This document shows positions 6,779-34,089 of a DNA stretch of 40,850 nt, in pieces. The notes beneath the pieces were generated by a model. It had not been told where the DNA came from. It ran no database searches and was given only the letters and a program-made list of their open reading frames with translations. Origin of the DNA: Saprospiraceae bacterium (GTDB lineage Bacteria > Bacteroidota > Bacteroidia > Chitinophagales > Saprospiraceae); contig JALVES010000081.1 of NCBI GenBank assembly GCA_027030635.1, positions 1 through 40,850 on the forward strand, read 5' to 3'. Made by a program: the position numbers and the translations under genes. The first letter of the stretch is position 1, and each line of letters begins with the position of its first letter.

Positions 6779-7001
6779 AGCGGGAGTTTTGCTTTAAGAA
6801 CGCAGGCCGGGAAATTTTCGTTTGTCGGCTTGTTTGCATTAAAACAGCGCCATTTGACAAAACCTTTTTGCTTTTCATTGTTTTTTTATGCAAAAGGGTA
6901 AGATGACCTCTGTGGTACAGATATCCATTTGGGCATTTGGGTAGCGCAAAGCCGCCGCTCAAAAGCCTTTGACATTTTTTTCACTTAAAATTTTGAGAAT
7001 C

Positions 7002-8342
7002 ATGAAACAAAAAATTACGCTCTTTGTGTTGACTTTTTTGATGTTGAGCACAGTTGCCTTTGCGCAAAGAAACTTTTCTTCCAATCTCCACGAGAGTGCT
7101 GCCAAGACGGGCATGAGCCATCATGTATGGAACTCTTTGAGGCCTCAGCACGCAGTTGTCCCTGCTCAAAACAGCATGTTCCGCTCTTTGGACACTAAGC
7201 TGGGCCTGGACAGTTTGGTGGTTTCTGTTTATGATGCTAATTTGGCTGTCTGGATGCCCGGTAACAAAGAATGGCATACTTATGATGCAGATGGGCATGA
7301 AACGCTGTTTACGCTTTTCTATTGGAATGCTGATTTGAATGACTGGATGCCGGACGGTAAAACCGGATACGAGTATGATGCAGACGGCCGTTTGTCGGTG
7401 GATTCCAGTTTTTATTTCGATTCTGATAGTACACAGTGGTTTATCATTGACAAAAATGTTTACACTTATGATGCAGACGGGAAGTTGATGCAAAAAGTCA
7501 ATTACTATTGGGATGCAAACAGCTCGCAGTGGGAACCTACGGAGCAGAGTTCATACAGCTACAATGCAGATGGCAGCATAGATGTCATTTCTACTTCGTA
7601 CTGGGTAGGCAGCTGGGTGGATGGCAGCGAGGAAGCCTACATCTATGATGGCGATGGCAATCTGACGGAAATCGTTTCATCTTATTGGGACGGTTTTTCC
7701 TGGGAGCCCGATTCCCGTGAGCTTTTCGGTTACAATGCCGACGGGCAATGGACGGAGTATATTACCCAGTATTGGGATTTTGATCTCCAAGACTGGGCGA
7801 ATGACGAAAAAGAGGAATACATCTATGATGCAGCCGGAGATGTCATGGAAAATTTTACCTATGGCTGGGATATAGTCACTCAGACCTGGATGTCTGTCAG
7901 CAAGCTGGATCTTGTACATGATACAGACTACTCAGCCCAGGATTTGTTGATACCCATTGTTTATGAGGAAGATGCCCCTCACTTTTTTACTCACAAATTG
8001 GACAACGCACAGCTTTATAACTGGGATGAAGACCTCGGCTGGCAGGTCTTTTTGAATGTGGATTTGTACTATTCAGAGTACGTCTTTACTGGCACTTCCG
8101 AGCCTGAGGCGAAAGAGTTGGGCGTTTTCCCCAATCCCGCTTCCGATCATATTTCGCTGCAACTTCCCGATGATTTTACAGAGGGCATTTTCCGCGTATT
8201 TGATGCGCAGGGCCGCCAGGTTTTGGTGCAGGAGTTGCAAGGCTCCGGAGAAATCAGTGTGGCCGGCTTGCGCTCCGGACTGTACTTCTACACCCTCGGA
8301 GGAGACGAGCGAAAGATGTACGGCAAGTTTGTGAAGGAATAA
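7002..8342 (+). CDS. Secreted repeat protein (YD-like YxYDADG / Wxxxxx(x)W repeats) with T9SS C-terminal sorting domain
   Basis: Signal peptide MKQKITLFVLTFLMLSTVAFAQ (ORF open from 6969). At least 7 repeats of about 30 aa: WHTYDADGHE, GYEYDADGRL, VYTYDADGKL, SYSYNADGSI, AYIYDGDGNL, LFGYNADGQW, EYIYDAAGDV. These alternate with YYWDANSSQWEP-type motifs. CTD reads LGVFPNPASDHISLQL...GLYFYTL. Confidence 0.8.
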   Translation: MKQKITLFVLTFLMLSTVAFAQRNFSSNLHESAAKTGMSHHVWNSLRPQHAVVPAQNSMFRSLDTKLGLDSLVVSVYDANLAVWMPGNKEWHTYDADGHETLFTLFYWNADLNDWMPDGKTGYEYDADGRLSVDSSFYFDSDSTQWFIIDKNVYTYDADGKLMQKVNYYWDANSSQWEPTEQSSYSYNADGSIDVISTSYWVGSWVDGSEEAYIYDGDGNLTEIVSSYWDGFSWEPDSRELFGYNADGQWTEYITQYWDFDLQDWANDEKEEYIYDAAGDVMENFTYGWDIVTQTWMSVSKLDLVHDTDYSAQDLLIPIVYEEDAPHFFTHKLDNAQLYNWDEDLGWQVFLNVDLYYSEYVFTGTSEPEAKELGVFPNPASDHISLQLPDDFTEGIFRVFDAQGRQVLVQELQGSGEISVAGLRSGLYFYTLGGDERKMYGKFVKE

Positions 8343-8359
8343 ACTCCCTTTCCATATTT

Positions 8360-8400
8360 TGCGGGGGCCCCCTGAGCGTAGTCGAAGGGGCGCCCCCGCA
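8360..8400 (+). terminator. Long GC-rich hairpin followed by a T-rich tract
   Basis: tgcgggggcccct(12-nt loop)aggggcgcccccgca forms a ~14-bp stem with a 1-nt bulge, followed by tttatttt. It lies 18 nt after the stop at 8342. Confidence 0.6.
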
Positions 8401-12676: not shown

Positions 12677-13337
12677 AGGCTTGCAATTTGATTTGCAGGC
12701 CAATTTGATCATTGATGAGCCGGTCTTTAGCCGTACCGATGATACCGGATTTGTAGGTGATGCCCCATTGCGTGCGGTCAATGGTGAATTTGGGCGTTTC
12801 GACCTCTACATAGGTTTCGGCGACCTGTACTTTGGCGGGGATGCTGATGCTTTTGGTGATGCCTTTGATGGTGAGGTTTCCGGTGATGAGGTAGTTGGCG
12901 TCTTCGCGTCCGGCTAAGGGTTTGGCATCTGTGATGACGAAGGTAGCCGTAGGGAATTGCCCGGCGTCAAAGAAATCCGAAGAGCGCAGGTGGTTTTGGA
13001 GGTCTTCTTTGTCCTGGCCTTCCTGGTCGGTGTTTTCGATGCTGTTCATATCTATGATGAACTCTCCGCCGGAGATTTTTCCGTTGGCCATTTGCAGGTG
13101 GCCTTTTTGGAGTTTGATGATGCCCGTATGGCCTCCTCCGGGTTTGGTACCCTCCCAGAAGATTCGGGCGTTATCGGCATCTACGGTCAGTTTGGCAGAG
13201 TTTTCTGCAGGGCTGTCTTGTTGCTCATTTTGTTGTGCTTCGGAGGCTTCTACCTGCTCGCCTTCGGGAGCTTGAGAGCAGGAGGCTGCAAAAAGGAGCA
13301 GGCTAAAGAGAAGGAAGAAAGTGCTAAGTCGCTGCAT
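12669..13337 (-). CDS. YceI family lipoprotein
   Basis: 222 aa. Lipobox LLLFAASC and an acidic Q/E linker. YceI-like core: ARIFWEGTKPGGGHTGIIKL...ATFVITDAKP...GNLTIKGITKSISIPAKV. Confidence 0.8.
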   Translation of the reverse strand: MQRLSTFFLLFSLLLFAASCSQAPEGEQVEASEAQQNEQQDSPAENSAKLTVDADNARIFWEGTKPGGGHTGIIKLQKGHLQMANGKISGGEFIIDMNSIENTDQEGQDKEDLQNHLRSSDFFDAGQFPTATFVITDAKPLAGREDANYLITGNLTIKGITKSISIPAKVQVAETYVEVETPKFTIDRTQWGITYKSGIIGTAKDRLINDQIGLQIKLQASL

Positions 13338-27363: not shown

Positions 27364-27393
27364 ACGGCCGGATGTTTATCCGGTCGTTTTTTT
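27364..27393 (+). terminator. Rho-independent terminator
   Basis: acggccggat gttt atccggtcgt has one G-U pair and is followed by T6. It overlaps the stop of the convergent oxidoreductase. Confidence 0.7.
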
Positions 27394-28411
27394 ATGTTAG
27401 CTGCAAAACGACCTTCCCCGTTGTTTTCCCCGACTGGAACAGCCTCAGGGCCTCCGGCAGTTCTTCAAACGGCAGGCGGTGCCCGACGCGGGGTTTGCCG
27501 AGATTGAGCCGTTCGAGTTCGCTCAATTGTTGGCGCATGGTTTCGATTTGGCCGTAGAGGTAGATGAGGTTGAAGCCGAGGATACCCACATTGCGATGCG
27601 TCATGGCCTGAGGGTCTATCTTTGGGCGGGTGAAATACTGCCACATCAGGCGCAGGTAGTTGGGCTTGTCGCCGGTATTGGTATAGCGGGCAGCGCCATA
27701 GACGATCATGCGGCCCTGTGAGGCGAGGCGTTGCCAGGCTTCCGCCAAAACCCTGCCGCCTATGCACTCCATGACGAGCTGCAGGGGACGCTCTCCCAAG
27801 GCTTCGTCCAATTGCTCGCCAAAGTTTTTGCTGCGGACGATGACTTTGTCATAGCCCTCTTCCCTGCAATAAGCCACCTTCTCCGGACGGCTGACGGTGC
27901 CAATAGTATAGGCACCATATTTTTTGGCGATGCGATTGGCAAAAGTACCCACGCCACCGGCAGCGCTGTGGATGAGGACGGTCATGCCTTTCTGCAAATC
28001 GCCTAATTTCACCAGGGCGTAATAGGCCGTGAGCGCCTGTACGGGATAGGCGGCGCCTTCTTCAAAACTCCAGCCTTCGGGCAGGGGGTTGAGGTAGTCT
28101 TCGCTGTGAAGAATGTGACTGACATAGGCCCCAAAGCGGGTAACGCCCATAACGGCATCGCCCTCCTTAAAACGCCTGACCTCCGGGCCCGTGGCGATGA
28201 CTTCGCCGGCAAATTCCAGGCCGGGCACAAAGGCCTCTTTGGGCGCCGCCTGGTAAAGCCCCTTTACGGAAAAAACATCGGCAAAATTCAATCCAATAGC
28301 CCGCACTTGCACGAGAACCTGCCGGCCCGAAGGCATGGGCAAATGCTCCTCAACCAATTTGAGATTGGACAGACTTCCGGGGTTTACGTACCAGGCTTTG
28401 CGTTTTGTCAT
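27392..28411 (-). CDS. NADPH:quinone oxidoreductase / zinc-type alcohol dehydrogenase-like (MDR superfamily)
   Basis: 339 aa. Contains GLNFADVFSVKGLY, PGLEFAGEV and the nucleotide-binding motif VLIHSAAGGVGTFA. Confidence 0.85.
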   Translation of the reverse strand: MTKRKAWYVNPGSLSNLKLVEEHLPMPSGRQVLVQVRAIGLNFADVFSVKGLYQAAPKEAFVPGLEFAGEVIATGPEVRRFKEGDAVMGVTRFGAYVSHILHSEDYLNPLPEGWSFEEGAAYPVQALTAYYALVKLGDLQKGMTVLIHSAAGGVGTFANRIAKKYGAYTIGTVSRPEKVAYCREEGYDKVIVRSKNFGEQLDEALGERPLQLVMECIGGRVLAEAWQRLASQGRMIVYGAARYTNTGDKPNYLRLMWQYFTRPKIDPQAMTHRNVGILGFNLIYLYGQIETMRQQLSELERLNLGKPRVGHRLPFEELPEALRLFQSGKTTGKVVLQLT

Positions 28412-28455
28412 GGAAAATGTGTTTTGATTTCAAGCGCAAGGTAAGGAGAATTGAG

Positions 28456-28572
28456 AATGTGGAACGCTATGCGTTTTAATGTGGAACGCTACGCGTTCTA
28501 ATGTGGAACGCTGCGCGTTCTAATGTGGAACGCTGCGCGTTCTAATGTGGAGACCTTGCGGTCTCTAATGTG
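28456..28572. repeat. Five tandem 22-23-bp units, each AATGTG plus a 6-bp-stem hairpin, plus a partial sixth unit
   Basis: Units start at 28456, 28478, 28500, 28522 and 28544. Units 1-4 carry ggaacgcNNNgcgttY. Unit 5 carries gagacc ttgc ggtctc. Confidence 0.95.
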
Positions 28573-28603
28573 ATTTTACGCTCGCTTCGCATCGCGGAAA
28601 TAA

Positions 28604-28738
28604 TTGAGAATGGAAAATGGAGAATGACCTCTCCGTGAACCCCGTGAACTCCGTGGTGAAAAAATTGAAAATGGAAAATGGAGAATGAAGAATGACCTCT
28701 CCGTGAGCACTCCGTGTACGCCGTGAACTCCGTGGTGA
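28604..28738. repeat. Two imperfect direct copies (56 and 74 bp) built from GARAATG heptamers and CCGTGNAC 9-mers
   Basis: Copy A is 28604-28659: ttgagaatggaaaatggagaatgacctctccgtgaaccccgtgaactccgtggtga. Copy B is 28665-28738 and has extra internal units. Confidence 0.9.
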
Positions 28739-28794
28739 GTTTACTGCTATGCCCTTGACCCCGTATTCGAGCCTGGTTGGGCTCTGATTGTTAC

Positions 28795-29070
28795 GCGTCA
28801 CGCTCATCACGTTCGTTACGTTCATCACGTTCATCACGCTCATCGTCAGAATCACAGATTACACGGATTACACAGATTGACACAGATTGAGCCCCGCTTC
28901 CACCGATTAGGCCGATTTCACCGATTTACCCAATTTCACCGATTCCACCCTCCATCGTCAGAATCACAGATTACACGGATTATGGGATTGCACAGATTTT
29001 TTGCTTTTTGCTAAGCTGCTCACCCCGTCACGTTCGTCACGCCGTCTCTTCCGATTTCACTGATTCCGCC
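28795..29070. repeat. Composite block of 9-10-bp tandem words, partly duplicated
   Basis: The words catcacgtt, cacagatta and caccgattt run in short tandem series. An exact 30-nt duplicate catcgtcagaatcacagattacacggatta occurs at 28841-28870 and 28953-28982. Confidence 0.9.
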
Positions 29071-29134
29071 AAGCCGTATCGTACGCGCGCTAAAGCACGC
29101 GGTACTTATTGACGGGCTAAAGCCCGCCCAACTC

Positions 29135-29194
29135 AACGCTAAACACTAAACACTAAACGATACACGATAAACGATAAACAATAAACAATAAACC
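29135..29194. repeat. 7-8-bp tandem words (cactaaa / cgataaa / caataaa)
   Basis: aacgctaaacactaaacactaaacgatacacgataaacgataaacaataaacaataaacc. Confidence 0.9.
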
Positions 29195-29203
29195 AACGCG
29201 TCC

Positions 29204-29265
29204 GACAACAGACAACAGACAACAGACAACAGACAACAGACAACAGACAACAGACAACAGACAAC
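29204..29265. repeat. Perfect heptanucleotide microsatellite: (GACAACA) x 8 plus a partial copy
   Basis: Units start every 7 nt from 29204 to 29253. The array ends 2 nt from the stop codon of the M15 peptidase gene. Confidence 0.97.
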
Positions 29266-29267
29266 CG

Positions 29268-30098
29268 CTACAAACACTCCGGATTAATCCCCAGCACATA
29301 GTGCTCCACGACTTGAATAGCCGTTGCTGTTTCTGCGCCGGCGAAGCCGCTGATGTCTTCGTCTTTTAGTTCGGTTTTGGCCAGGGCTGTGAGTTTGCGG
29401 GCCAGGGGGAGGTAAGACCAGTGCCATTTTTCCTCCTCATAGCCGTAGGGGCGTTTGGGGCCTTTGGCGGTATAGACCTGGCAAAAGCCGTATTCGGCGG
29501 CATGGGCTTGCAGCCATTCGTATTCTTTGAGCCCCCGGCCTTGCTCGAAGTAGCTGTTTTCGAGCGCGTTGAGGTCCACGTCTGTGCCCCAATGGTGGCG
29601 CGAAGTGCCGGGCATGGAGGAGTATCTCAGTATGGTTTTTGCCCTTTCGACGGGGTCTTTGACGGCTTTCGCCAAATTTTGTCCCTCGACCGGCCGGCGC
29701 CCCGTCCACTTGGCTTCCCAGATGCTTTTTTGGCGGGTAAAGGGGCGGGTGGCGGATATGATGGTGAGTCTGATGCCGTCTTTTTTGGCTGCTTCGTACA
29801 TTTTGGCGAAAGCCTCAAAAGTCAGCCGATGCAGGTAGTATCCCTCCTCATCGGCATAGGGCTTGCCGAAGCGCACGAACTCGGGTTGTTTGGCGGGGTC
29901 AAATTTGCCCATGAGGTAGTCTTTGGAGAAAATGTAGGCGCTGTCAAAGGGGATTTGCTCTCCGGTGTTTTTAGAGCTGTCTTTGGCTCCGGGAGTTTCT
30001 TCTTTGGCCTTATCTGCCATGACTTTGGGGCTTGAGGCCGGTTCGGAGCAGGCCGCGAGCAAGAGCGATAAAAGGAGGAAAAGAGGCATGGTTTTCAT
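29268..30098 (-). CDS. M15-family D-alanyl-D-alanine carboxypeptidase-like (VanY-type) lipoprotein
   Basis: 276 aa. Lipobox LLLSLLLAAC. Zinc-ligand motifs SRHHWGTDVDLN and EEKWHWSY. Confidence 0.8.
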   Translation of the reverse strand: MKTMPLFLLLSLLLAACSEPASSPKVMADKAKEETPGAKDSSKNTGEQIPFDSAYIFSKDYLMGKFDPAKQPEFVRFGKPYADEEGYYLHRLTFEAFAKMYEAAKKDGIRLTIISATRPFTRQKSIWEAKWTGRRPVEGQNLAKAVKDPVERAKTILRYSSMPGTSRHHWGTDVDLNALENSYFEQGRGLKEYEWLQAHAAEYGFCQVYTAKGPKRPYGYEEEKWHWSYLPLARKLTALAKTELKDEDISGFAGAETATAIQVVEHYVLGINPECL

Positions 30099-30161: not shown

Positions 30162-31589
30162 CTATCCGGGCGTAGCTTTGGAGCGTTTTTTGCTGAGGGG
30201 GTAGCCAAACAGTCCTTTCTCTTTGATGGCTTTGACGACTTCGGGAGGCACGGATTCTTCCCAGCCCGATTCGCCGGCCTGCAATTGAGCAAGCACCTGG
30301 TCGGTGGGGATTTTGAGCGCTTTGGGGTTGAAGTAGCGCACATCTGTGATTTGGCCGCTTTCCTGCAGGTGTTTGTAGATGTACTTCATGCCTTCGGGAA
30401 TGGGCAGGTTTTGGGAGTCCATGCGATGGCGGTCGTCGGCTTCGATGTTGGGATAGACGTACATGGTTACGTTGCGGGTAAAGATTTCGCCGAAGGAGAC
30501 GAGCAGGCGGCCGTCTTTGTTGCGCTCGTATTTTTCCCGGATGATGTCGAGCAGGTGATAGGCGCCGATGACGAGACCTATCTTCTGGATGCGGAAATCG
30601 GCGAGATATTCGATGAGTTCGTTGTAGTGTTCGTACTTGGAGAGCAGCACCATTTTGTCCATGGCTGCGAGGGCGTCGGCGCGGTCGAGGAAGTCGGCTT
30701 CGCGTTCTTCGCCTTCGCCATGCAGGTCTTCGAGTCGCAATTCGGCCAGCACTTCGGAGCGGGCGGCCTCTTCGTCGCCGAGGTCTTCCTGGAATTGGCG
30801 ATAGGCATTGGTGAAGGTATCGGCGTGCAGCAGCGTAGGCGGGCGGAAGTTGCCGCGCGAGATCATGACGTTTTGCTTGTACAGCAAGTCGGAGCCGTGT
30901 ATGGAGCCGTTGGCATCGAAGAGCGTGAGCTTGGTCAGGCCGTAGTGTACCAGCCAATAGCTGAGCAGGCGCTTGTCTAAATCTTCAAAGTCGGGGCCCG
31001 TCAGGCGCAGCATGTCTATGGATACGCGTCCCTGCAGGCGATCCATGAGGGAGCGTATCAGTTTGCGGGGGTCTTTAGCGTGACGAAAGCAGGCGTAGAT
31101 GAGGTTGACACCGAGGATGCCGATGGCTTCCTGCTGTTGTTTTTTGTTATAGTCTTCGAGATTGACATGCAGCACGATGTCGTTGGGCGGACTTTCCGGT
31201 TCGAGCTGAAAGCGCAAGCCGACCCAGCCATGCCCCCTCACCGTGCGCTGGTAATTGACCGTCGCCACGGTATTGGCAAAGGCAAAAAAGAGAGTGTCGG
31301 GACGGCAGTTGCCGAGGCGTTCGTCCACCAGGCCGTATTCGTGCTCCAGCATTTTGTAAATGCGAGACTCACAGACGTAACGGCCCTTTTTCTCCGGCCC
31401 GTAGATCACATCCGAAAAGATCTTGTCGTAGGCCGACATGGTCTTGGCAATGGTGCCGGCTGCTGCGCCGGCCTGAAAGAAATAGCGGGCGACTTCCTGC
31501 CCGGCGCCAATTTCGGCAAAGGTGCCGTAAATCGCAGGGTCGAGATTGATTTCTAAGGCTTTTTGCTCGGTCTCTAATACTTGTTGCAT
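30162..31589 (-). CDS. Conserved protein of unknown function
   Basis: ORF open to 31613. Probable start is MQQVLETEQ at 31589. Strongly conserved-looking N-terminus INLDPAIYGTFAEIGAGQEVARYFFQAGAAAGTIAKTMSAYD. From memory, homologues are inconsistently annotated, for example as NaMN adenylyltransferase-like because of the C-terminal IPTDQVLAQLQAGESGWEESVPPEVVKAIKEKGLFGY segment. No confident family assignment. Confidence 0.75.
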   Translation of the reverse strand: MQQVLETEQKALEINLDPAIYGTFAEIGAGQEVARYFFQAGAAAGTIAKTMSAYDKIFSDVIYGPEKKGRYVCESRIYKMLEHEYGLVDERLGNCRPDTLFFAFANTVATVNYQRTVRGHGWVGLRFQLEPESPPNDIVLHVNLEDYNKKQQQEAIGILGVNLIYACFRHAKDPRKLIRSLMDRLQGRVSIDMLRLTGPDFEDLDKRLLSYWLVHYGLTKLTLFDANGSIHGSDLLYKQNVMISRGNFRPPTLLHADTFTNAYRQFQEDLGDEEAARSEVLAELRLEDLHGEGEEREADFLDRADALAAMDKMVLLSKYEHYNELIEYLADFRIQKIGLVIGAYHLLDIIREKYERNKDGRLLVSFGEIFTRNVTMYVYPNIEADDRHRMDSQNLPIPEGMKYIYKHLQESGQITDVRYFNPKALKIPTDQVLAQLQAGESGWEESVPPEVVKAIKEKGLFGYPLSKKRSKATPG

Positions 31590-31727
31590 GTAAGGCTTTT
31601 TAAGACAGGACAAAGGTAGGGCTTTTTCTTCGGCCCTGCTTTTTTGTGAATTTTCTTTGAGTAGAGGTTCATTAAGTTTTGGGCACCTGTTTCCTTTGGA
31701 AAACAGATTGTCAAGTTGAACTGGCTT

Positions 31728-31800
31728 AAAAATCCGCGAAAACCCGCGTCATCTGTCTGATTGAGCTTGCCGAAATCCGCGTCATCCGCGTTCTATCACG
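31728..31800. repeat. Short dispersed word repeats (aatccgcg x 2, ccgcgtcatc x 2)
   Basis: aaaaatccgcgaaaacccgcgtcatctgtctgattgagcttgccgaaatccgcgtcatccgcgttc. Confidence 0.8.
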
Positions 31801-33336: not shown

Positions 33337-34089
33337 ATGAAACAAAATGCTTTTTTCCTTTTCGCCCTCTGGGTAAGTGCCTTTCTCGGGCTGACACTTT
33401 TTTCGGCCTGCCATTCCGAGCCCATTATCGTTCAATTGCCGGATGACGGCAACAACGGCGGGAACAATGGCGGCAATAACAACGGCGGAAACAACGGCGG
33501 CAGCAATGCCAACGAGTGTCCCGAGGGTACGATTTCCTTTCAATACGAGGTGCTACCCTTATTGGTCTCTTCCTGTGCCACCAGTGGCTGCCACGATGCT
33601 GCCAGCCACAAGGAAGGTGTCATTATGGATTCCTATGATAACATCATGGAAGAAGTGAAGCCCAACAAGCCGCCGAGCAAGAGCAAGCTCTATCAGGTGC
33701 TGGTGCGCTCGGGCAGAGAGCGCATGCCGCCGCCGCCCAATCCGGCATTTACCCAGGAGCAGATTGACCTGATTGCCAACTGGATTGATCAGGGGGCGCC
33801 CAACACCGATTGCCTCCCGGCCTGTGATCCTTACAACTATACGTTCAATGCGGTGATTTATCCCACCATTCTGCAATCCTGCACGGGCTGCCACAGCGGT
33901 TCGCAGGCTTCCGGCTCGGTTTGGCTGGAGACTTATGATGACATCTACCTCTATGCCGTCAACGGGAAACTACTCGGCAGCATCAAGCACGAAGCGGGCT
34001 ACAGCGCCATGCCTCCGGGCCTGCAGTTAGACGACTGCCGCATCACGCAAATTGAAAACTGGATCAACAATGGAGCGCCCAATGATTAA
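33337..34089 (+). CDS. Lipoprotein with two PSCyt1-like (Planctomycete cytochrome c-type) modules
   Basis: Lipobox LTLFSAC and a GNNGG low-complexity linker. Module 1: VLPLLVSSCATSGCHD...ERMPPPP...IANWIDQGAP (CX4CH). Module 2: IYPTILQSCTGCHSG...GYSAMPPG...IENWINNGAP (CXXCH). Confidence 0.75.
   Translation: MKQNAFFLFALWVSAFLGLTLFSACHSEPIIVQLPDDGNNGGNNGGNNNGGNNGGSNANECPEGTISFQYEVLPLLVSSCATSGCHDAASHKEGVIMDSYDNIMEEVKPNKPPSKSKLYQVLVRSGRERMPPPPNPAFTQEQIDLIANWIDQGAPNTDCLPACDPYNYTFNAVIYPTILQSCTGCHSGSQASGSVWLETYDDIYLYAVNGKLLGSIKHEAGYSAMPPGLQLDDCRITQIENWINNGAPND

Follow-up and report, generated by a model that had tools for sequence, protein, structure and literature searches.

The repetitive extragenic palindromic sequences and bacterial interspersed mosaic elements (REP/BIME), together with the REPIN clusters of pseudomonads, are extragenic, dispersed mosaics of a few conserved short modules, hairpins among them; they are often found between genes of the same operon, vary in module number and break short-read assemblies. 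In heterocystous cyanobacteria, the short tandemly repeated repetitive (STRR) sequences carry tandem heptamers, with the same unit at many intergenic sites, and Elhai et al. are said to have described, in 2008, small elements nested inside such arrays. The 7-bp STRR arrays can form hairpins between the genes of an operon, and their function is unknown (PMC2670836). Genes of the DUF1703 family, which also figure below, have expanded independently, with recombining paralogs and with partial genes at scaffold borders, and their function too is given as unknown (PMC6387759). Here we describe a DNA element that shares the traits just listed for REP/BIME and the dispersed heptamer arrays of STRR sequences. 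It lies in a 40,850-nt stretch of a Saprospiraceae bacterium (phylum Bacteroidota; GenBank assembly GCA_027030635.1, contig JALVES010000081.1, positions 1 to 40,850 of the forward strand; hereafter the window), where it fills the 856-bp spacer (28412..29267) between the stop codon of a VanY-like gene and the start codon of a gene resembling alcohol dehydrogenase (ADH). Comparison with other loci identifies this spacer as one copy of a dispersed, ordered and oriented non-coding modular mosaic element of ~0.3-0.9 kb. It is a new BIME/STRR-like repeat family, the closest known kinds being REP/BIME and the cyanobacterial STRR sequences. Elsewhere the element usually stands beside DUF1703 genes, and we think it probable that the window holds a solitary copy left behind after the loss of such a gene.

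Evidence for dispersal came from metagenome contigs, which we scanned with a 20-nt junction word taken from the (GAGAATG)n/(CTCCGTGAAC)n unit. This yielded four further contigs from one JGI metagenome (L381-L384 in our numbering of loci), plus three chance matches in coding sequence; the flanks of the four are unlike those of the window, and their spacers are assembled from window modules. With the window's eleven modules as queries, BLAST matched L003, L381-L387, L389 and L390 at E = 1e-7 to 3e-32; the window outside the spacer gave no match, and neither did four outgroup loci (17-21 kb each). Modules recur, mostly in the same order, at at least ten unrelated loci: the recurrent set comprises the 22-mer hairpins, (GAGAATG)n-GACCTCTCCGTGA-(CTCCGTGAAC)n, (CATCACGTT)n, the TAAA hairpins, (CTAAACN)n and (GACAACA)n. 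The parts of the window copy are as follows (TRF, Tandem Repeats Finder).

28412..29267, minus strand: the whole mosaic element; this is the sense strand, as for both flanking genes; absent in outgroups
28456..28570, minus strand: M1, 22-bp hairpin units (CCACATTAGAACGCGCAGCGTT) in 4.4 copies plus a GAGACC-GCAA-GGTCTC variant; TRF score 164
28571..28603, minus strand: M2, unique linker (GCGATGCGAAGCGAGCGTAAAAT); 97% identical over 33 bp in L003 and 100% over 26 bp in L389
28603..28740, minus strand: M3, two copies of (CACGGAGTT)n, hairpin GGAGAGGTCATTCTCC and (ATTYTCC)n; BLAST E down to 3e-32
28741..28797, minus strand: M4, unique linker with hairpin GAGCC-N-GGCTC (28769-28784); also in L391, L381 and L003
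28796..28844, with a remnant at 29024-29046, minus strand: M5, (CGTGATGAA/CGTAACGAA) 9-mer array (TRF); 98-100% identical in L381, L382, L384 and L387
28841..29023, minus strand: nested block splitting M5, with two M6 arrays of CACAGATT, the M7 array of CACCGATT and the M8 linker TTTTTGCTTTTTGCTAAGCTGCTCACCCC
29081..29126, minus strand: M9, two TAAA/TTTA-loop hairpins in a ~100-bp backbone; 91-98% identical over 44-50 bp in L381, L382 and L384
29136..29193, minus strand: M10, GTTTAKN heptamer array (TRF); also in L381, L384, L385 and L387
29204..29265, minus strand: M12, perfect (TGTTGTC)8.9, 2 nt past the VanY stop codon

Unique linkers and small hairpins form the backbone of the element, which is interleaved with tandem arrays of 7-, 9- and 22-bp units, and small modules are nested within the arrays. 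Thirteen M3 units from 10 loci have the invariant core TCACGGAGAGGTCATTCTCCATT in common, and the hairpin in M3 is terminator-like by score. The window copy is colinear with that of L391, which is the L384 locus in an independent assembly, and the two are ~95% identical over the ~100-bp M9 backbone, except that L391 lacks the nested M6-M7-M6-M8 block (~180 bp); M6-M8 is found again as a unit in L381, L382 and L385. Arrays of (TGTTGTC)n occur in the window, in L385 (where M12 follows an Nramp stop codon), in L387 and in L390 (where M12 arrays are inverted), and those of (GTTTAKN)n in the window, L381, L384 and L387. Copies differ in the order of their modules, and M5 runs in reverse orientation in L382. 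The copies in L381, L384 and L390 are closed by inverted arrays of 39-52 nt, with a different word each time; none were found in the window or L382 copies, and the window spacer has no long inverted repeats.

The copies obey a strict rule of orientation. We counted non-orthologous loci across genomes, in the metagenomes and metagenome-assembled genomes (MAGs) of the lineage, and at 10 of 10 the backbone points the same way relative to its co-directional flanking genes. G/T-rich arrays (TGTTGTC, GTTTAKN, AATCNGTG, CGTGAYGAA) begin right past the upstream stop codon, the conserved M9, M4 and M3 modules occupy the middle, and (CATTYTC)n together with a Bacteroidota-type -7 box lies right before the downstream start codon.

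The two genes that border the window copy are both on the minus strand.

27392..28411, minus strand: ADH-like gene (zinc-type alcohol dehydrogenase/quinone oxidoreductase-like), downstream; Pfam ADH_N and ADH_zinc_N
29268..30098, minus strand: VanY/M15 D-Ala-D-Ala carboxypeptidase-like gene, upstream; Pfam VanY, E = 1.7e-32

By its VanY homologues, the window belongs with the Saprospiraceae/Lewinellaceae. In relatives whose VanY is 81%, 75% or 72% identical, a 472-505-aa gene, VanY and ADH are adjacent: the last two genes share 4 bp (CTATGA) in L004-6 and L010, and are separated by 22 bp in L007-9. Of the relatives compared, the sister species L003 (92% identical) is alone in having a spacer as well. 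Identity at four-fold sites is 80-84% for the window and L003, and 43-45%, which is near saturation, for the window and the nearest outgroup, L004. Because the genes overlap or nearly touch in the outgroups, this comparison of gene order marks the spacer as an insertion at the VanY-ADH site, and its arrays as not having formed in place. L390 and L008 belong to one genome, in which the element family is present and the VanY-ADH site is empty. The window counterpart of the 472-505-aa gene encodes a 483-aa protein without a Pfam hit (30162-31613, minus strand); it lies directly upstream of VanY in all relatives, and appears to belong to an ancestral three-gene operon with VanY and ADH. Another feature of the neighborhood is a 12-bp/27-bp tandem repeat (CGGCAACAACGG) inside an open reading frame (ORF) at 33447-33506, with a similar one in L003 at 7000-7061.

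The sister species L003 also provides the link to DUF1703. Its VanY-ADH spacer holds a 514-aa gene with the Pfam domains AAA-ATPase_like and PDDEXK_9 (the DUF1703 family), sitting between two partial copies of the element with duplicated modules. After the second copy there is a relic (13073-13153) made up of two fragments that match the gene at 100% identity, one covering its codons about 11-20 and the other an internal 51 nt. Either the relic derives from the gene by a very recent internal deletion, or the scaffold mixes population variants. In L383, the mosaic is found directly 3′ of a DUF1703 paralogue that is 84% identical. The protein database contains about 60 clusters of DUF1703 paralogues at 54-81% identity, mostly on short contigs. 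Five paralogue loci were fetched without regard to repeats, and in 5 of the 5, mosaic modules lie directly upstream of the DUF1703 gene. The order in L385 is Nramp stop codon, (TGTTGTC)4, (CGTGACNAA)3, hairpins, M3, DUF1703 gene; in L389, from a metagenome that is also the source of a 99.7%-identical window copy, the gene is preceded by M3-M2-M1, ordered as in window 28440-28740, with the M2-M1 block 94% identical over 58 bp. A DUF1703 gene is downstream in most of the copies examined, and the association of mosaic and gene family is specific and previously unreported. The DUF1703 protein itself had no matches in NCBIfam, PADLOC or PDB sequences. Its AlphaFold2 model (mean predicted local distance difference test score 73.6) gave weak Foldseek matches to ORC/Cdc6 and RecA-like P-loop proteins, none of them significant (best E = 2.6e-3, template modelling (TM) score 0.2).

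The -7 promoter consensus of Bacteroidota is TAnnTTTG. In all five fetched DUF1703 loci, TATCTTTG or a close variant stands 4-6 nt before the ATG, and its agreement with that consensus suggests a Bacteroidota-type -7 box. The window copy ends in a candidate counterpart.

28436..28443, minus strand: TACCTTGC, degenerate terminal TAnnTTTG -7 box, 24 nt upstream of the ADH ATG; conserved in L003

This word aligns with CCCTATCTTTG, found 4-6 nt before the ATG of DUF1703 paralogues, and may be a promoter of the ADH gene. A sigma-70 promoter scan, which does not model Bacteroidota promoters, gave no enrichment.

The simplest history that we can propose runs as follows. The element, most likely with a DUF1703 gene, would have arrived between VanY and ADH in the ancestor that the window species shares with L003; joint entry is suggested by L003, where the gene still lies at this site, flanked by two copies of the element and by a deleted relic. 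In the window lineage, the gene would later have been removed by recombination between such flanking copies, and the deletions in L003 may be read as such a loss in progress. What would remain at the VanY-ADH site is a solo element, still slipping. Today it would uncouple VanY and ADH, whose translation was once coupled, and the degenerate promoter box at its end may drive ADH; beyond that, selfish or neutral DNA is the most likely description. Such elements could spread by transposition, by ectopic recombination or by hitch-hiking along with DUF1703 genes.

Several observations weigh against this history. There is no target-site duplication at the VanY/ADH junction relative to the empty sites, no transposase was seen nearby, and defined element termini were not found. 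No DUF1703 gene is adjacent in the sequence at hand for the window, L381, L382 or L384/L391, and the window copy holds no relic of one, so that its loss is read solely from L003, whose arrangement comes from a metagenome scaffold that could mix population variants. The promoter role is proposed from a motif match, and the box in the window is degenerate. Finally, modules are alike between species with saturated synonymous sites, which is not readily expected of purely neutral DNA and may point to constraint, concerted evolution or transfer. One such case is a small separate module in another spacer of the window.

31773..31796, plus strand: AAATCCGCGTCATCCGCGTTCTAT; the same 24 nt occur in the L390 mosaic

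The L390 copy of this word lies inside a mosaic upstream of a DUF1703 gene, in a distant relative whose synonymous sites are likely saturated. ATCCGCG-type words are seen around it in the window (31728-31800), in the divergent spacer upstream of the 483-aa gene.

A preliminary description of the window, made from the sequence alone, had singled out 28441-29266 as a non-coding region of unusual repeat density, and this was right on both counts. No credible gene lies in the spacer, where all ORFs are repeat-derived, and TRF arrays with a score of at least 30 cover 486 of the 826 bp (58.8%) versus 1.30% of the remaining 40 kb of the window. The richest other 826-bp segment has 146 bp covered, and in 100 dinucleotide-preserving shuffles of the region the coverage averaged 3.6 bp and peaked at 34 bp. 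All of the repeat families listed in the description are present where it placed them: the 22-bp unit (x4.4, 28456-28551, with a fifth variant, GAGACC-TTGC-GGTCTC, extending to 28570), GARAATG heptamers (28603-28625 and 28661-28695), CCGTGAAC-type 9-mers (28633-28655 and 28699-28734), TCACGTTCA (x5.2, 28796-28844), CACAGATTA (x3.9, 28853-28888, with a second array at 28964-28998), CACCGATTT (x5.4, 28901-28949), two TAAA-loop hairpins (29081-29105 and 29113-29126), TAAAC-type heptamers (x7.7, 29136-29193) and a perfect (GACAACA)8.9 (29204-29265). The description went too far in calling the region almost entirely repeats, as ~41% of it, outside the arrays, is unique linker and about ten small hairpins. 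Nor are all of the blocks unrelated: CACAGATT and CACCGATT belong to the same CACNGATT family, and there are higher-order duplications (a ~70-bp unit and a ~30-bp CATCGTCAGAATCACAGATTACACGGATTA block, each in two copies). Word families are confined to the plus strand in the window (for CACNGATT, 11 plus versus 0 minus). Rather than a run of unrelated microsatellites formed in situ, the region has the stereotyped, ordered and oriented backbone described above, which is itself dispersed and inserted. Two assemblies besides that of the window carry the locus, and the proposed comparison between strains did reveal copy-number polymorphism. The ENA assembly ERZ27262687 (L001) is 99.7% identical over 12.4 kb, and its spacer differs in only two respects, three fewer GACAACA units and a G>A change that makes CACGGATTA into CACAGATTA; the contig in NCBI GCA_011374895.1 (L002) stops inside the spacer at window ~29040. 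GACAACA copies number 8.9 in the window, 5.9 in L001 and 4.9 in L002, and TAAAC-type (GTTTAKN) copies 7.7 in the window versus 10.7 in L002, whereas the unique linkers agree across all three independent assemblies. The changes are concentrated in the purest arrays, as expected of replication slippage. At a second locus, L384 and L391 differ in the number of whole M3 units (~80 bp), and GCGTCACG and CGTTACG vary in copy number among L007, L008 and L009. Such changes of copy number between strains are what replication slippage and unequal recombination would be expected to produce, and slippage and recombination are both evident. Short-read contigs often stop in mosaics or just past DUF1703 genes (L002, L386, L387, L388 and the end of L385); the elements thus fragment assemblies, and their copy number is probably under-reported.

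Other suggestions of the same description fared unevenly. Its words do recur beyond the locus, both at the lineage loci above and, for CACNGATT, in many phyla. It had pointed to related words in two other spacers of the window: in one of them, the word at 31773-31796 recurs in the L390 mosaic, but the other (8370-8390) is unrelated. There, at 8355-8400, we see an ordinary GC-rich terminator-like stem-loop, GCGGGGGCCCCC...GGGGCGCCCCCGC, past a stop codon and unlike the mosaic words. The spurious tiny ORFs that it mentioned for other Bacteroidota were not substantiated, the largest repeat-derived ORF having one match in the protein database.

The CACNGATT vocabulary extends well beyond the lineage. 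A scan with the word CACNGATTNCACNGATTNCACNGATT, in one genome per GTDB species, returned at least 120 loci. The matches listed include Verrucomicrobiota, Planctomycetota, Chloroflexota, Acidobacteriota, Bacteroidota, Cloacimonadota, Cyanobacteria, Proteobacteria and others among bacteria, Methanoperedens, Methanocomedens and Thermoplasmatota among archaea, and, as cultured isolates, Asticcacaulis, Segatella copri, a Bacteroides sp., Solimonas and Salinisphaera. We rejected raw match counts as proof of a special word: in viral contigs, shuffled words gave 7, 61 and at least 120 loci versus 59 for the real one, because 9-bp coding repeats are common. Three independent features are nevertheless specific to the real word, namely its hairpin partner, its co-occurring vocabulary and GATT at the free positions. 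The hairpins are polar, with (CACNGATTN)n always 5′ of (NAATCNGTG)n: among the matches listed, a reverse-complement partner lies within 150 bp downstream of 46 of 118 arrays and upstream of 1 of 120, as against 1/187 and 1/186, respectively, for control words. C[AG]C[AG][AG]A occurs in 71 of 225 other arrays more than 250 bp away, versus 7.2 +/- 2.5 expected. Where the search imposed no base, the arrays still have GATT, although the loci are 58-67% GC. The consensus of the class is C[A/G]C[A/G]GATT-N; it is dispersed within genomes, and AT-rich even in these GC-rich surroundings. Stems of the hairpins consist of 8-bp helices parted by mostly T.T or A.A mismatches, and nested hairpins and higher-order tandem copies occur among the arrays. 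Their flanks are inverted rather than direct, and so there is no target-site duplication. By tblastn, no DUF1703 genes lie near the cross-phylum arrays, and with crude gene calling no clear rule emerged for their placement or orientation relative to genes.

Examples among loci L011-L130 are L018 (1133-1197), L021 (2548-2619), L056 (7830-7990), L058 and L066, and related words near such arrays include CGCAGATT, CACGGAG and CACGAAG. In a Gemmatimonadales MAG (L076, 5200-6760), a ~270-bp unit is present in at least five tandem copies with hairpin arms (CGCAGATT)3 and (AATCTGTG)2, which would pair by G.T wobbles on one strand. Several Bacteroidales MAGs (L043 1834-1915, L045 2630-2676, L105 585-614, L081 and L064) contain GAAGAAT/GAAAAAT, AAAGTTG and TAAAC-type heptamers that look like those of the window, and heptamer vocabularies of this kind may be common across Bacteroidota. 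A very incomplete literature search found no published description of the CACNGATT class, and the exact word CACAGATTACACAGATT had no match in the literature searched, whose coverage was likewise incomplete. To our knowledge, the cross-phylum CACNGATT hairpin arrays have not been described in print.

We considered four other explanations for the mosaic. In the first, the modules are themselves non-autonomous mobile elements, resembling miniature inverted-repeat transposable elements (MITEs) or small dispersed repeats (SDRs), that pile into arrays and hairpins, and the DUF1703 genes are accidental neighbors. This seems unlikely to us, although it would account for the nested block, which splits the CGTGAYGAA array in the window and not in L391 and whose M6-M8 part moves as a unit, and it would also suit the variable module order with its inverted M5, the three copies with terminal inverted arrays and the nested hairpin elements of other phyla. 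Against it, neither target-site duplications nor a nearby transposase turned up, the cross-phylum hairpins have inverted rather than direct flanks, and modules upstream of 5 of 5 DUF1703 paralogs speak against accident.

In the second, which we rate as distinctly unlikely but compatible with dispersal, the arrays are cis-acting sites bound by the DUF1703 ATPase-nuclease, a regulator or a nucleoid protein, much like the subterminal repeats of transposon ends or the origin-recognition boxes beside orc1/cdc6. Module sequences are indeed kept among paralogs whose proteins are 54-81% identical and across saturated species, orientation is strict at all 10 loci, inverted arrays of 39-52 nt end three copies, and the DUF1703 model has weak ORC/Cdc6-like AAA+ matches. 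Those matches are, however, not significant, strains vary freely in copy number and even in module content, and gene conversion (concerted evolution) could equally hold the words alike.

A role at the RNA level appears improbable. In the manner of REP/BIME or STRR sequences, the element would be cotranscribed with the upstream gene, and its hairpins would stabilize the upstream mRNA, terminate or attenuate read-through, and so set the VanY:ADH expression ratio. For STRR hairpins between hupS and hupL, a role in stabilizing transcripts has been proposed (PMC2670836). The sense strand has about ten small hairpins, two GGAGAGGTCATTCTCC sites followed by T-rich sequence are terminator-like (5 such sites in the region versus 1.2 expected), and the element always starts directly past a stop codon. 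The whole spacer, however, folds no better than shuffles (z = -1.18), and with all words on one strand the window copy has no long stems. Rfam gave nothing for the whole window at gathering score, and for the spacer, searched by E-value, only a meaningless mir-H11 (E = 0.4), so that the structured RNA raised in the preliminary description finds no backing here. In 54 cross-phylum CACNGATT hairpins there is no excess of G.U wobble, G.T-type mismatches (37) being no more frequent than A.C-type (45), and crude gene calls show no enrichment of the cross-phylum arrays at the ends of convergent or co-directional genes.

A one-off slippage hot spot or an assembly artefact, for which one might cite the slippage of perfect arrays, the differing copy numbers and the contigs that break there (L002 in the spacer, L386-388 in mosaics), deserves next to no credence and is refuted by unique linkers that are the same in three independent assemblies and by modules at at least ten further loci.

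Some candidate identities were set aside along the way. The units run head-to-tail without spacers, which rules out a clustered regularly interspaced short palindromic repeat (CRISPR) array, and the 22-bp x4.4 array was rejected as a plasmid or phage iteron origin on account of its chromosomal housekeeping flanks and the lack of a rep gene. Likenesses of the words to DnaA boxes, IHF, parS, Chi or CRP sites or a tRNA T-arm were dropped as unconvincing by eye.

The dispersed mosaic element, with the window holding a solo copy, remains our preferred reading. On this reading, what looked like a curiosity becomes a definable family of repeats, open to searches, annotation and masking, that has its own backbone, rule of orientation and partner genes. 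It explains the contig breaks of the lineage at such sites, offers a case of an operon split by inserted non-coding repeat DNA, and ties the enigmatic, repeatedly expanding DUF1703 genes to specific flanking DNA, which bears on their spread or regulation. Should the cross-phylum CACNGATT hairpin arrays prove to be a class, they would constitute a feature of genomes that is widespread and has no known mechanism. Tentatively, and with little more weight than a speculation, the element might be a cis-acting partner of the DUF1703 family, a portable promoter, insulator or recognition cassette by way of which its genes proliferate and recombine, accompanied by an undescribed cross-phylum and cross-domain class of nonamers sharing its vocabulary. 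Such a cassette would be the first functional handle on DUF1703 expansions, and such a nonamer class would imply a sequence-specific mechanism or a mobile agent common to bacteria and archaea.

Compared with known systems, the element departs from REP/BIME in several ways. It consists mostly of direct 7-9-bp tandem arrays rather than alternating inverted palindromic units, and its hairpin modules (M1, M9 and the one inside M3) all lack the GTAG head of the 20-40-bp REP palindrome. Instead of alternating in orientation, the words of the window are on one strand and the backbone is co-oriented at 10 of 10 loci. No REP-associated tyrosine transposase (RAYT, a Y1 transposase) is found in the gene tables of the fetched loci, and the element is tied to the DUF1703 family and ends in a promoter-like box. 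Its units presumably differ from the cyanobacterial STRR unit sequences. Unlike STRR sequences, it belongs to another phylum (the host being one of the Bacteroidota) and uses other words, with nonamers and a 22-mer besides heptamers, and its arrays are ordered in a stereotyped 0.3-0.9 kb backbone with a fixed orientation to genes.

Three further kinds of system are more distant. The simple sequence repeats of contingency loci in Neisseria, Haemophilus and Mycoplasma share perfect short arrays whose copy number varies between strains, and in the DUF1703 copies, likewise, arrays directly precede the promoter box of genes that belong to a multi-copy family. The variable arrays of the window, by contrast, are 750-850 bp upstream of the ADH start, past the VanY stop codon, and neither within an ORF nor between promoter elements, with no on/off effect evident. 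The DUF1703 expansions described elsewhere, such as that of Cardinium cCpun, resemble ours in domain architecture, in the many divergent paralogs that recombine and in the partial genes seen at scaffold borders; there, the genes are described and the available part of the account reports no stereotyped repeat-mosaic flank (PMC6387759), whereas the window has the flank without a DUF1703 gene. As for MITEs, their traits are seen in the terminal inverted arrays of the L381, L384 and L390 copies, but not in the window or L382 copies, nor in any target-site duplication, and the known kinds closest to the element remain the REP/BIME and STRR families.

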